From the IMG/VR virus record IMGVR_UViG_2721755646_000011: a DNA stretch of 64,000 nucleotides; one strand, given 5' to 3'. Below the pieces are notes generated by a model. It ran no database searches. It was not told where the DNA came from and saw only the letters and a list, made by a program, of their open reading frames with translations. Positions within the stretch are counted from its first letter, which is position 1; each line of letters starts with the position of its first letter. Below are positions 1-64,000 of this stretch, piece after piece. Position numbers and translations under genes: made by a program. The DNA comes from a virus (Duplodnaviria; Heunggongvirae; Uroviricota; Caudoviricetes).

Positions 1-1
1 C

Positions 2-70
2 CGCGTTGAGAATTTTAATCGCCTATTCACCGAGCTACTAGAAGCTCGCAAACGTAACAAACATCAGTAA
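2..70 (+). CDS. DicA-like HTH repressor, C-terminal fragment truncated by window edge
   Basis: In-frame translation RVENFNRLFTELLEARKRNKHQ-stop parallels the C-terminus of the complete 135-aa DicA-like ORF at 58639-59046 (RVENFNKLFEELLKARKRSANK); same downstream gene order. Confidence 0.55.
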   Translation, partial: RVENFNRLFTELLEARKRNKHQ

Positions 71-154
71 CCCCCTTCACAAATTTTAAAGCCTTACATT
101 TCAATGTATTGGCTTTATTTTGCATTAAATATTGAGTTTTCTCATTAAAAATAC

Positions 155-183
155 TTGACCAACATTCATGAGAAAACTAAATT
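155..183 (+). promoter_or_regulatory. putative sigma70 promoter of the dicB-type operon (TTGACC, 17-bp spacer, TAAATT)
   Basis: Consensus-like -35 and -10 hexamers read directly; an equivalent TTGACC promoter is found at 59145-59174 before the paralogous operon. Confidence 0.45.
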
Positions 184-259
184 ACCACCCATCAAGACAC
201 CGCACGGTGTTCTCAGCAAACAGTTCCGCTACCCGGCGTTAAGGGGAAATGAGGTCAGC

Positions 260-415
260 ATGGATACTATCGATCTTGGCAACAGCGAATCTCTGGTATG
301 TGGCGTGTTCCCCAACCAGGACGGCACGTTCACCGCGATGACGTATACCAAAAGCAAAACGTTTAAAACCGAAAATGGTGCCCGTCGCTGGCTGGAAAGA
401 AACTCAGGTGAGTGA
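260..415 (+). CDS. ydfA: YdfA-like small protein (Qin-type dicB operon)
   Basis: 51-aa reading MDTIDLGNSESLVCGVFPNQDGTF... inside the 86-aa track ORF; position between the DicA-type repressor and ydfB/ydfC as in the E. coli Qin prophage; identification from memory of the family. Confidence 0.5.
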   Translation: MDTIDLGNSESLVCGVFPNQDGTFTAMTYTKSKTFKTENGARRWLERNSGE

Positions 416-416
416 T

Positions 417-545
417 ATGGATTTCGACACAATCATGGAAAAGGCTTATGAAGAATACTTCGAAGGTCTTGCCGACGGCGAAGAAGCTCTCAGCTTCAAC
501 GAATTTAAACAGGCGCTTTCCAGCTCGGCAAAATCTAACGGCTGA
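417..545 (+). CDS. ydfB: YdfB-like small protein (42 aa)
   Basis: ATG 1 nt after the ydfA stop; translation MDFDTIMEKAYEEYFEGLADGEEALSFNEFKQALSSSAKSNG; not in the ORF track because it is under 60 aa. Confidence 0.45.
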   Translation: MDFDTIMEKAYEEYFEGLADGEEALSFNEFKQALSSSAKSNG

Positions 546-574
546 TAAGCGAAACAGCACCGCGAGGAATCAGT

Positions 575-60330: not shown

Positions 60331-60541
60331 TGAAATAGTTAACGCGAATTGTACTTGCTCTTTCGGTTGCTTTCAGAATACGCGTTGAAACTGCTGGCGG
60401 TAATTTGGTATTCCATTTATTAAAATCATGCCCGGGAAAGTACTCTTCGAAAATACTTTTAACTGCAGACTCGCCTATTGAAATGCTGCTTACCATGCGA
60501 TTTTGATAAAGGCATTTAGCAATAAGAGTTGATTTTAACAT
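60308..60541 (-). CDS. hypothetical protein, convergent partner in the inserted cassette
   Basis: 77-aa ORF with strong AGGAGGG RBS 6 nt before the ATG; 3' ends of the two genes overlap by 23 nt. Confidence 0.45.
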   Translation of the reverse strand: MLKSTLIAKCLYQNRMVSSISIGESAVKSIFEEYFPGHDFNKWNTKLPPAVSTRILKATERASTIRVNYFIKDLWDL

Positions 60542-60874
60542 TCACCCTCCTGAGGGTTGGTAATTAAGGAGTTCTCCACGGGTGAAGTGGAGTGCGTGCG
60601 CCGGACACGGGTGAACATCCGGCACTGACAGTTTACTGAAAGGATATTTCTCTGAAAAGTCAGAGCATAACGCGAAAGCGCACGGCGAGGTTGCTGGTTC
60701 ATAGATAGCCTGTCGTTAAATTTTCGTCGACCGTGCGCTTCCGGTTGTGGCACTCCGCGAAATGGCGCAGCGGTAAGTATGGCGGGGTTATTCCTTCCCC
60801 GTTGAGGACACCGGGTTGTCAGGTTGACCATACGCTTAAGTGACAACCCCGCTGCAACGCCCTCTGTTATCAAT

Positions 60875-60930
60875 TTTCTGGTGACGTTTGGCGGCATCTG
60901 TTTGCCCATGAACTGATGTCCGCCCTTTTT
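60875..60930 (+). ncRNA. dicF: DicF-like sRNA, diverged second copy
   Basis: 5' half TTTCTGGTGACGTTTGGCGG identical to the copy at 1134-1191; different central sequence but conserved terminator architecture. Confidence 0.55.
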
Positions 60931-61099
60931 AAAGTGAATTTTGTGATGCAGTGAATGCGGCTAAGCGCACGCGGAACAGTTAAAGCTAAAAACAGTGTTA
61001 TGGGTGGATTCTCTGTATCCGGCGTTAATTGTTAACTGGTTAACGTCACCTGGAGGCACCAGGCACCGCATCACAAAATTCATTGTTGAGGACGCGATA

Positions 61100-61288
61100 A
61101 TGGAAACGTTATTACCAAACGTTAATACGTCTGAAGGTTGTTTTGAAATTGGTGTCACTATCAGTAACCCTGTATTTACTGAAGATGCCATTAACAAGAG
61201 AAAACACGAACGGGAGTTATTAAATAAAATATGCATTCTTTCAATGCTGGCCCGTTTACGTCCGATACAAAAAGGATGCTGGCAATGA
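61100..61288 (+). CDS. dicB: DicB cell-division inhibitor (paralogue)
   Basis: 62-aa product METLLPNVNTSEGCFEIGVTISNPVFTEDAINKRK ... matching DicB. Confidence 0.75.
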   Translation: METLLPNVNTSEGCFEIGVTISNPVFTEDAINKRKHERELLNKICILSMLARLRPIQKGCWQ

Positions 61289-61476
61289 ATACAGCATTTG
61301 CACTTGTTCTGACAGTTTTTCTTGTTTCCGGAGAGCCAGTTGATATTGCAGTCAGTGTTCACAGGACAATGCAGGAGTGTGTGACTGCAGCAACCGAACA
61401 GAAAATTCCCGGTAACTGTTACCCTGTCGATAAAGTTATTCACCAGGATAATAACGAAATCCCGGCAGGTCTTTAA
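61285..61476 (+). CDS. ydfD: YdfD-like small protein (paralogue)
   Basis: ATG overlapping the dicB stop (ATGA); product MNTAFALVLTVFL ... ends NNEIPAGL like copy 1. Confidence 0.5.
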   Translation: MNTAFALVLTVFLVSGEPVDIAVSVHRTMQECVTAATEQKIPGNCYPVDKVIHQDNNEIPAGL

Positions 61477-61568
61477 AACAGTTCCGTAATAAACATCCGA
61501 TTTCATTCTTATATGCCAGCAATGGCAGGGATTTGTTCACCCTTAAATCTGTAATGAGGTAAAACAAA

Positions 61569-64000
61569 ATGAGTAAAGTCTTTATTTGCGCCGCCATTCC
61601 GGACGAACAGGCAATAAAGGAAGAAGGTGCAGTCGCTGTAGCCACTGCCATTGAAGCCGGTGATGAACGTCGCGCCCGCGCAAAATTTCACTGGCAATTC
61701 CTGGAGCATTATCCGGCTGCTCAGGACTGCGCTTATAAATTTCTTGTTTGCGAGGATAAACCCGGTATACCCCGCCCTGCCCTCGATTCCTGGGATGCTG
61801 AATATATGCAGGAAAACCGCTGGGATGAGGGGGCTGCTTCCTTTGTCCCGGTTGAGACTGAATCCGATCCGATGAACGTCGCTTTTGACAAGCTGGCCCC
61901 TGAAGTACAGAACGCTGTCATGGTTAAGTTCGACACATGTGAAAACATCACCGTTGATATGGTGATTAGCGCGCAGGAATTGTTGCAGGAAGACATGGCA
62001 ACATTCGACGGACATATCGTTGAAGCGTTGATGAAAATGCCAGAAGTTAACGCCATGTATCCGGAGCTTAAGCTGCATGCCATCGGGTGGGTTAAGCATA
62101 AATGTAAGCCTGGTGCCAAATGGCCCGAAATTCAGGCAGAAATGCGCATCTGGAAAAAACGTCGCGAAGGTGAACGCAAGGAAACCGGAAAATACACGTC
62201 TGTTGTTGATCTCGCCCGCGCCAGAGTCCACCGACAGCACACTGAAAACTCAGCAGAAAAAATCCCCCCTGTCACTGCAGTCATTCGTCGCGAATATAAG
62301 CAGACATGGAAAACACTGGATGACGAACTGGCCTACGCTCTCTGGCCTGGTGATGTGGATGCCGGAAACATTGACGGCAGCATCCATCGCTGGGCAAAAA
62401 ATGAAGTTATCGACAACGACCGCGAAGACTGGAAGCGTATCTCGGCATCAATGCGCAAACAGCCTGATGCCCTTCGCTACGACCGCCAGACTATTTTTGG
62501 CCTTGTCCGTGAACGTCCGATCGACATTCACAAAGACCCTGTGGCACTGAACAAATACATTACTGAATACCTGACTACAAAGGGCGTGTTTGAAGATGAA
62601 GGAACAAATCAGAGCGCAACTGACACTCTCTCGTCGCCAGTACCAGAAACTGATGCAGTGGAAACGGCAATTCCGGACAACGAAAAAACCGAATGCAAAG
62701 TGGAAGTCGAACCATCTGTAGAGCGTGAGGGGCCGTTCTACTTCCTCTTCACCGACAAGGATGGCGAAAAATACGGTCGCGCAAACAAACTTTCTGGTCT
62801 GGATAAGGCGCTGGCTGCCGGGGCTACTGAAATCACAAAAGAAGAATATTTTGCCCGAAAAAATGGCACATACACAGGCTTACCGCAAAATGCAAATACC
62901 GCACAAAATTCTGAACAACCAGAACCGGTAAAAGTTACCGCTGACGAAGTAAAGAAAATTATGCAGGCAGCCAATATCAGCCAGCCTGACGCCAATCAGT
63001 TGCTCGCCGCATCACGTGGTGAATTTGTTGCAGGGATTAGCGACCCGAATGATCCGAAATGGGTGAAGGGGATTGAAACCCGCGATTCTGTGAACCAGAA
63101 CCAGCAAGAAAACGGAACAGAACGACCAGAAAGCGGAACAAAACAGCCCCAAATACGCAACAAAACGAGCCAGAAACGAAACAACCTGAGCCAGTAGCGC
63201 AACAGGAACCGGAAAAAGTCTGCACCGCCTGCGGTCAGACCGGCGGCGGCAACTGCCCTGATTGTGGGCGCGGTGATGGGCGACGCAACATACCAGGAAA
63301 CATTCGATGAAGAGTATCAGGTTGAAGTTCAGGAAGATGATCCGGAGGAAATGGAAGCGCTGAACATCCACACAAGGAGAACACTGACGGCAATCAGCAT
63401 CACGATAGCGATAATGAAACTGGCGAGACGGCAGATCAATTAAGGTGAACGGTCATCAAGAATCACATCCACCAGCAGGACGTGTGACCATCTAATGATC
63501 GACCTTGAAACCATGGGAAAAATCCTGATCATCTCAATAGGTGCAATATTTTCGATCCGCAAACCGGAGATATGGGACCGGAATTTAGTAAGACTATCGA
63601 TCTGGAAACTGCTGGCGGGTCATTGATCGGGACACCATTAAATGGTGGCTTAAGCAATCACGCGAAGCGCAATCTGCCATTATGACCGATGAAATCCCGT
63701 TAGATGATGCACTATTACAATTGCGGGAATTTATCGACGAAAACTCCGGTGAATTTTGTTCAGGTCTGGGGAAATGGAGCCAACTTCGACAACACGATTT
63801 TGCGCCGTTCATACGAACGGCAGGGGATCCCCTGCCCGTGGCGTTACTACAACGATCGCGATGTACGCACAATCGTTGAGCTGGGGAAAGCCATAGACTT
63901 CGATGCCAGAACGGCTATTCCATTCGAAGGTGAGCGCCATAATGCACTTGATGACGCCCGTTACCAGGCAAAATACGTTTCAGTTATCTGGCAAAACTGA
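61569..64000 (+). pseudogene. second exonuclease-domain early gene, decayed by multiple indels; runs off the window
   Basis: 542-aa ORF with a different N-terminus from copy 1; after about 63100 the homologous sequence continues only as out-of-frame fragments (63704-64000 matches the copy-1 C-terminus) with several small indels. Confidence 0.7.

Follow-up and report, generated by a model that had tools for sequence, protein, structure and literature searches.

Evidence for a head-to-tail tandem of two heteroimmune lambdoid prophages at the 3' end of ompW in Escherichia coli O157:H7

A stretch of 64,000 nucleotides of the virus record IMGVR_UViG_2721755646_000011 (IMG/VR; Caudoviricetes), hereafter called the window, carries a dicF-dicB-exo module at each of its two ends. 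This raises the question whether the two modules belong to two neighbouring prophages, to one prophage that was invaded or duplicated, or to separate loci that were joined during assembly. An initial annotation of the sequence had proposed two lambdoid prophages arranged head-to-tail. With high confidence, the window can be assigned to the chromosome of Escherichia coli O157:H7, where two different lambdoid prophages, heteroimmune to each other, form a true head-to-tail tandem at the 3' end of ompW. It is part of this reading that the same integrase and excisionase (Int/Xis) system integrated both prophages into the ompW 3' end; such prophages are named "PPompW" in the literature. The observation behind the initial annotation was confirmed and its interpretation is supported; it had overlooked ompW as the integration site, the prior publication of such an arrangement, and the artefactual indels in the second exo copy.

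Arrangement at ompW and the middle attachment site

The left 5.7 kb of the window are the early and int end of prophage 1, which is cut by the window edge. The "immunity fragment" described earlier at this edge is merely the repressor gene of prophage 1, whose last 70 nt fall within the window and which is intact in strain ATCC 43889. The remainder comprises nearly all of prophage 2, which starts with its cargo end and reaches as far as a dicF-dicB-exo module of its own; the window ends inside the exo gene of prophage 2, approximately 0.3 kb short of xis-int, with an intact ompW beyond. The features of prophage 1 and of the adjoining attachment (att) site are as follows (sRNA, small RNA).
1-70, plus: 3' end of a DicA/CI-like repressor gene cut by the window edge, mapped from the ATCC 43889 gene at 936080-936487
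260-415, plus: ydfA-like gene (RefSeq annotation of the identical stretch)
417-545, plus: ydfB (RefSeq annotation of the identical stretch)
575-793, plus: ydfC (RefSeq annotation of the identical stretch)
1135-1187, plus: DicF sRNA, canonical allele (Rfam RF00039)
1359-1547, plus: dicB copy 1, 62 aa (Pfam DicB PF05358, 115.7 bits)
1544-1732, plus: ydfD-like DUF1482 gene, copy 1 (annotation)
1825-4269, plus: exo copy 1, 814 aa (Pfam PF06630 and PF16473), with an N-terminal Exonuc_VIII and a C-terminal DEDDh 3'-5' exonuclease domain
4334-4582, plus: xis (Pfam Exc PF07825)
4560-5690, plus: int, 376 aa, lambda-type (Pfam PF09003 and PF00589)
5734-5854: 121-bp ompW-derived middle att, an attP-like hybrid (an ompW 3' fragment is annotated here by RefSeq)
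6162-6182, minus: attB-in-PP_1, an intact and unoccupied 21-bp site of prophage 2 (exact match to GTCATGCAGTTAAAGTGGCGG)

The complete arrangement can be read in ATCC 43889, which, like other genomes, is 100% identical to window positions 1-8000. There the trp operon, yciG, yciF, yciE, and a 126-bp ompW 3' fragment are followed by a full-length prophage 1 (tail fibre, heads, lysis, Q, replication, cro/repressor, ydfABC, dicB, exo, xis-int), a second 126-bp ompW 3' fragment, which corresponds to window 5736-5861, and prophage 2. The latter begins with its cargo part (insertion sequence (IS) remnants, an nleG-like gene, espM1, nleG, nleF, nleH1-2, nleA), continues with tail, head, lysis, late control, hokD, paa, and replication genes, and ends with cro/repressor, ydfC, dicB, exo, and xis-int, after which intact ompW, yciC, yciB, yciA, and tonB form the right flank. 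This map bears out the proposed head-to-tail order, and the gene order in complete genomes agrees with the earlier claim that everything between the two modules is a single prophage body read from its cargo and tail end to its early region. The bacterial junctions and the second int that the initial annotation sought beyond the window were also located: the junctions are yciE|ompW' on the left and int|intact ompW on the right in ATCC 43889, and the second int lies approximately 0.3 kb to the right of the window. In the same strain, the annotation places a fragment of a YkgJ-family gene to the right of ompW, between ompW and yciC (L003 27365-27454). Another published site, attB-in-PP_2, reportedly originates from the ykgJ-ecpE region, and the fragment near ompW may be another att-related relic.

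The middle junction of the window was aligned with the two outer junctions of ATCC 43889 and with the yciE-side junction of strain 7636, which carries prophage 2 alone and served as the single-prophage reference. A 28-bp block, GTGGTATCGATATCCATGTACCACACTG, located at 5827-5854, is common to all four junctions. On its left side and through this block, the middle junction is identical to the rightmost (int|ompW) junction, with the int 3' end and a phage-type ompW 3' end; from the block rightwards, it is identical to the cargo-side arm that the only PPompW prophage of strain 7636 has at its yciE-side junction. The yciE-side junctions carry a bacterial-type ompW 3' end as far as the block. Because the junctions switch identity at this block, the crossover was placed within it. 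Around its core, the middle site combines an int arm that comes from phage 1 with a cargo arm that comes from phage 2, and it is thus a reconstituted attP-like site. According to the junction alignments and the gene order, the three att copies have the arm compositions B'OP, P'OP, and P'OB, and the prophages are co-oriented; in ATCC 43889, each of the three junctions bears an annotated ompW 3' fragment. The comparison with the uninterrupted site that had been suggested as a check gave the expected match: from the core rightwards, the window junction agrees with its yciE-side counterpart in strain 7636.

Independent support comes from GenBank records of PPompW prophages (LC5678xx), which match both the int half (query 4-755, 99.5% identity) and the cargo half (query 635-1601, 97.8%) of the junction. 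The two matches sit at opposite ends of the records and overlap by 121 bp at window 5734-5854, a stretch annotated in those records as "duplication due to insertion of PPompW"; 121 bp is also the published length of the PPompW att (PMC8112680). The integrase is of the PPompW type, for which more than 90% identity and coverage is the published criterion (PMC8112680). In prophage 1 it contains an arm-binding N-terminal domain (PF09003, 77.7 bits) and a tyrosine recombinase catalytic domain (PF00589, 58.7 bits), and the two Int proteins of the array share 375 of 376 residues. The xis genes of both prophages are represented by one protein accession in ATCC 43889, and the repressors of prophages 1 and 2 are 53% identical. 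Since int and xis are near-identical and the repressors so divergent, the two phages have the integration module in common, whereas their immunity most likely differs.

The same junctions bear on the possibility of a prophage within a prophage, according to which phage 1 would have inserted into an internal ompW-like attB of prophage 2 (the "attB-in-PP_3" idea). The 121-bp ompW att does occur inside some prophage genomes and could act as attB there (PMC8112680), and another internal attB of prophage 2, attB-in-PP_1, is situated only 0.3 kb from the middle att. The sequence of this 21-bp site was taken from the PPompW effector locus (PMC8112680), where it is a published landing site for Stx and other phages; the window matches it exactly, as did none of 100 shuffled sequences. 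However, in strain 7636 the position that phage 1 occupies in the tandem is the usual yciE-side border of prophage 2, with a bacterial-type ompW 3' end on its left. In the tandem strain, a bacterial-type ompW fragment stands at the far left of prophage 1, and no prophage 2 sequence occurs to the left of prophage 1. Integration into attB-in-PP_3 has also not been seen (PMC8112680), and the nested arrangement is thus very improbable.

A tandem at ompW is supported as the product of ordinary site-specific integration. In this mechanism, the attP of each phage carries a 121-bp copy of the ompW 3' end, so that ompW stays intact on integration and a displaced ompW fragment is left next to the cargo. 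When one such prophage was resident, a further phage with the same Int recombined with one of its hybrid att sites, and the outcome was the attP-like middle site with its int arm from phage 1 and its cargo arm from phage 2.

Distribution, assembly, and sequence quality

Of 5,426 complete E. coli genomes, 86 contain an uninterrupted copy of the 1.6-kb segment that spans the junction (window 5100-6700), among them TW14359, EC4115, SS17, ATCC 43889, E32511, FRIK944, FRIK2069 (99.8% identity), FRIK2455, and FRIK2533. Neither Sakai nor EDL933 is among the 60 of these 86 genomes that were listed, and no direct check of these two strains was made. Far commoner than the tandem is prophage 2, whose early region was detected in 605 genomes. 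The best relatives over the whole length are FDAARGOS_293, which contains an additional IS1203 (IS3 family), and NCCP 13892. The former is collinear with the window at 1-8000, 22000-46000, and 56000-64000, with a direct alignment that also spans window 9999-58013, and the latter at the 5100-6700 junction, 22000-46000, and 56000-64000.

These data also decide whether two prophage loci were erroneously joined via shared repeats, in which case the two modules would not lie approximately 60 kb apart. Misassembly had been named at the outset as the finding that would refute a tandem. It would be in keeping with the patches of poor sequence at 32.7-33.7 kb and 63.1-64.0 kb, which show dense homopolymer indels and almost no substitutions, and with the many near-identical lambdoid segments in O157 genomes, in which the number of places that match the left 8 kb has a median of 2 per genome and reaches 10. 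But the 5100-6700 junction is unique sequence without a repeat boundary, its structure is exactly as predicted by site-specific recombination, and collinearity with the window holds throughout the queried stretches in two complete genomes (FDAARGOS_293 and NCCP 13892). With the junction intact in 86 independent complete genomes, an assembly artefact is essentially refuted and can hardly be upheld.

The poor patches themselves are a matter of sequence quality. Identity to strain 7636 amounts to 99.84% over window 9500-31012 and to 99.98% over 35939-58500. Between 32.7 and 33.7 kb, where the tail-assembly and major-tail genes are interrupted, the alignment has approximately 130 gap columns and few substitutions. 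Between 63.1 and 64.0 kb, approximately 11 indels of 1-9 nt, eight of them in homopolymer runs, occur with zero substitutions relative to ATCC 43889, and the indels in the last 0.9 kb split exo copy 2 into several frames. As the indels are dense and substitutions nearly absent, these patches were read as poor consensus in repeated DNA and not as decay. For this reason exo copy 2 was rejected as a true pseudogene, its indels being mostly in homopolymers and free of substitutions, and the same indel pattern speaks for error and against real decay in the breaks of the tape-measure and tail genes at 31.0-33.7 kb. Prophage 2 is defective regardless, because J and the portal gene are annotated as frameshifted in other strains too.

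Several points weigh against the tandem as described for this window. A complete genome identical to the whole window was looked for and none was found. Both outer junctions lie outside the window and were read in other strains and not in the source genome; the yciE...ompW-yciC context was read in ATCC 43889 and strain 7636, and the window stops before ompW. The segments at 31.0-36.4 kb and 63.1-64.0 kb deviate from all complete genomes and are weak spots of the source assembly. We infer that prophage 2 was probably the earlier resident and prophage 1 came later, as the far more frequent occurrence of prophage 2 alone suggests, and that either Int/Xis could excise either prophage or both together.

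Paralogous modules and the two DicF alleles

The right module begins with the repressor gene of prophage 2 and comprises the following features.
58639-59046, plus: DicA/CI-like repressor, 135 aa (Pfam HTH_3 and Phage_CI_repr)
59682-59900, plus: ydfC copy 2 (annotation)
60876-60926, plus: DicF sRNA, variant allele (Rfam)
61100-61288, plus: dicB copy 2, 62 aa (Pfam DicB, 127.4 bits)
61285-61476, plus: ydfD-like DUF1482 gene, copy 2 (annotation)
61569-64000, plus: exo copy 2, which leaves the window (translation compared with an intact 823-aa homologue)

A repeat finder detected approximately 15 families of collinear direct repeats between 148-4241 and 59138-63996, with identities of 81-100% and, in some blocks, 100% identity across 61-70 nt. 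The start-to-start spacing of these families is 58,990-59,774 bp, and a spacing as constant as this is far beyond chance. The patches take in ydfC, dicF, dicB, the ydfD-like gene, and the 3' third of exo, and blastn delimited five collinear blocks, whose members lie 59.1-59.8 kb apart.
177-248 and 59168-59238: 95.8% identity
575-826 and 59682-59933: 94.0% identity (including ydfC)
814-1463 and 60555-61204: 91.9% identity
1771-1818 and 61513-61560: 85.4% identity
3229-4246 and 63000-64000: 92.2% identity

The claim that the left 5.7 kb are paralogous to the right end therefore holds as far as collinear direct paralogy is concerned, but this paralogy is patchy. The right module has no ydfA and ydfB and instead contains approximately 0.6 kb of extra open reading frames (ORFs). 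No nucleotide similarity was found by blastn between the two exo copies in their 5' 1.4 kb; the N-terminal ~460 aa of the proteins are unrelated, and only the C-terminal ~350 aa align, with near-identity in the DEDDh exonuclease domain. The ydfD-like copies are 48% identical to each other. Such patchiness is as expected for mosaic lambdoid phages. A duplication of one prophage in place, either through unequal crossing-over or because its excised copy re-integrated, with later divergence of the copies, has next to no probability, for although int and xis are near-identical and some exo stretches 100% identical, the repressors (53%), DicB (66%), and YdfD-like proteins (48%) are too dissimilar and the exo N-terminal halves unrelated, prophage 1 of ATCC 43889 carries other cargo than prophage 2 and, as annotated, another head module (a comparison with the HK97-type heads of prophage 2 in the window by annotation names only), and a mosaic relationship is typical of distinct lambdoid phages and not of a recent duplicate.

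The array contains three recombination-competent att sites and direct repeats of approximately 4 kb that are 60 kb apart, and therefore deletion, excision of one or both prophages, and the formation of hybrid phages are plausible routes of variation.

The expectation of two distinct DicF alleles and two dicB copies under different immunity regions is supported, as the alleles differ and the repressors are divergent. Left DicF scores 76.7 bits with Rfam RF00039 (match at 1135-1186; gathering score 48) and is identical to dicF of the K-12 prophage Qin. Right DicF reaches 43.5 bits (match at 60876-60925; E 3.7e-07), which is under the gathering score, and is nonetheless recognizable from its sequence as a clearly homologous, divergent allele with the same flanks, 5' end, 3' stem base, and U-tail. 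Its first 27 nt are kept save for one change, as is the closing CCGCCC-U tail, and the upper hairpin is rewritten. The terminator hairpins have predicted folding energies of -15.9 kcal/mol (left) and -17.3 kcal/mol (right). Both DicB proteins match PF05358 over the full length (profile positions 1-62 of 62; 115.7 and 127.4 bits, cut-off 27). Each dicBF module would be a PL-type operon held by its own repressor, and we infer that the two DicF/DicB sets answer different induction signals.

The 5' end of DicF pairs with xylR, and its 3' region pairs with pykA and with the ribosome-binding site of ftsZ (PMC5069750). With positions -35 to +15 of K-12 ftsZ, the predicted duplex of left DicF has an energy of -31.8 kcal/mol (29 of 500 shuffled sequences were as good) and that of right DicF -22.7 kcal/mol (336 of 500). 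The weaker predicted pairing of right DicF is due to the absence of the anti-Shine-Dalgarno stretch ACUCCG. It is conceivable, though on balance doubtful, that the alleles are functionally split: left DicF would repress ftsZ, whereas right DicF, which is carried by the widespread Sp9-type prophage, retains the xylR 5' seed and a good terminator, and has lost ACUCCG, would spare cell division and regulate metabolic or virulence targets. If this were true, the tandem would put a "toxic" and a "non-toxic" DicF under two repressors in one cell. The right allele, which lacks the ftsZ anti-Shine-Dalgarno stretch and keeps 5' seed and terminator, is a small new point and the only lead, of modest worth, that the locus offers. 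The dicF-dicB spacer of the right module also contains a weak STnc100-like match (60914-61119, plus strand; 32.5 bits, E 0.0003) with its centre at a hairpin, CACCUGGAGGCACCAGGCAC, that the left module has conserved too.

Gene content of prophage 2 and comparison with known systems

Prophage 2 is an effector-carrying defective prophage of the Sp9/CP-933O type, a name given on the basis of its effector set. Its effector cargo locus occupies 6596-20788 (RefSeq annotation of matching genomes and ORFs) and also contains IS3, IS630, and IS256 remnants.
6990-7640, minus: nleG-like gene
9147-9737, minus: espM1
9921-10568, plus: nleG
11897-14209: ISEc8
15175-15744, minus: nleF
15810-16721, minus: nleH1-2
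16893-17887, plus: integrase remnant (Pfam PF00589)
18548-19873, plus: nleA
20214-20788, minus: nleG pseudogene

The integrase remnant is of the lambda family, truncated, frameshifted, and 39% identical to the PPompW Int, and it directly adjoins 72 nt of a tail-fibre 3' end (16828-16899). The int'-nleA-nleG' segment lies between direct repeats that consist of the tail-fibre 3' end plus terminator (16760-16899 and 20834-20972, 92-93% identity) and is probably the scar of a third lambdoid prophage within the effector locus. The remainder of prophage 2 up to its early left module consists of the following regions.
20901-42328, minus: tail and head genes (annotation of strains 7636 and FDAARGOS_293), namely tail fibre, lom, J (frameshifted), tape measure, HK97-type head genes, and terminase
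42618-58562, minus: HNH endonuclease (42618-42983, minus), lysis, late-control, and early-right genes, with Rz, antirepressor, lysozyme, holin, DUF6645, tRNAs, methyltransferase, rusA, hokD/sok, paa, P, O-like, ydaT, and cro; a YlcI/YnfO-family gene is on the plus strand

The head module of prophage 2 in ATCC 43889 is lambda-type, as opposed to the HK97-type module in the window. A 162-nt tandem repeat in the portal-like gene is present in three copies at 35948-36433 (100, 93, and 67% identity to the first), one copy less than in strain 7636. The late region contains an RNA gene cluster at 48372-48983 with AgvB (plus strand, 56.6 bits), STnc100 (minus strand, 175 bits), tRNA-Arg(UCU), and a tRNA with a CAU anticodon, which is Met according to ARAGORN and Ile according to PGAP. 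The sok antisense RNA of hokD is located at 53610-53759, and the adhesin gene paa (AcfC family; 53948-54706, minus strand) and a fimbrial pseudogene (~54860-55400) lie between hokD and the replication genes.

The name PPompW was coined for lambdoid prophages at ompW by Nakamura, Ogura, Gotoh, and Hayashi (2021, PLoS Pathog; PMC8112680), who found PPompW in 44% of 767 complete genomes and, among the 91 O157 genomes of this set, a second PPompW in tandem in 4 strains. The published tandem (type a1, for example FRIK2069; PMC8112680) has the same ompW site, 121-bp att, and integrase, a second PPompW in tandem, and an effector locus with the 21-bp attB-in-PP_1 as in the window; there is no difference in kind, and the window copy has local sequence-quality defects. 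Multiple dicF or dicBF copies are known from Sakai and EDL933 (PMC5069750), and dicF has expanded from one to four copies in enterohaemorrhagic E. coli (EHEC; PMC7873438). Both the tandem PPompW and the multiple dicF/dicBF copies in EHEC are thus published, and the arrangement is already known. The main value of the analysis is the correct reading of a difficult region, as such prophage arrays in O157:H7 drive the accumulation of effector genes, large rearrangements, and assembly errors.

Prophage 2 is presumably the counterpart of Sp9 of O157:H7 Sakai and CP-933O of EDL933. These are likewise defective lambdoid prophages beside ompW, with EspM1, NleG, NleF, NleH1-2, and NleA as cargo and a dicF-dicB-exo-xis-int left arm. 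CP-933O has been described as a fusion of at least two prophages that carries dicBF (PMC5069750). Compared with the cryptic prophage Qin of K-12, the left module (190-1463) is 95% identical from ydfA to mid-dicB, and the right module (60555-61891) shares 94% identity over a stretch that starts shortly before dicF and runs across dicB and ydfD into the beginning of ydfE. Unlike in Qin, dicBF occupies its original position here, upstream of exo-xis-int within the PL arm of lambdoid prophages that are full-length, and the hairpin of right DicF is rewritten. The formation of the array resembles tandem (poly)lysogeny of phage lambda at attB, in which a second integration into a hybrid att results in direct-repeat prophages around an attP-like site. 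In contrast to lambda polylysogens, the prophages at ompW are not two copies of one phage but two different heteroimmune phages that share only the Int/att module.

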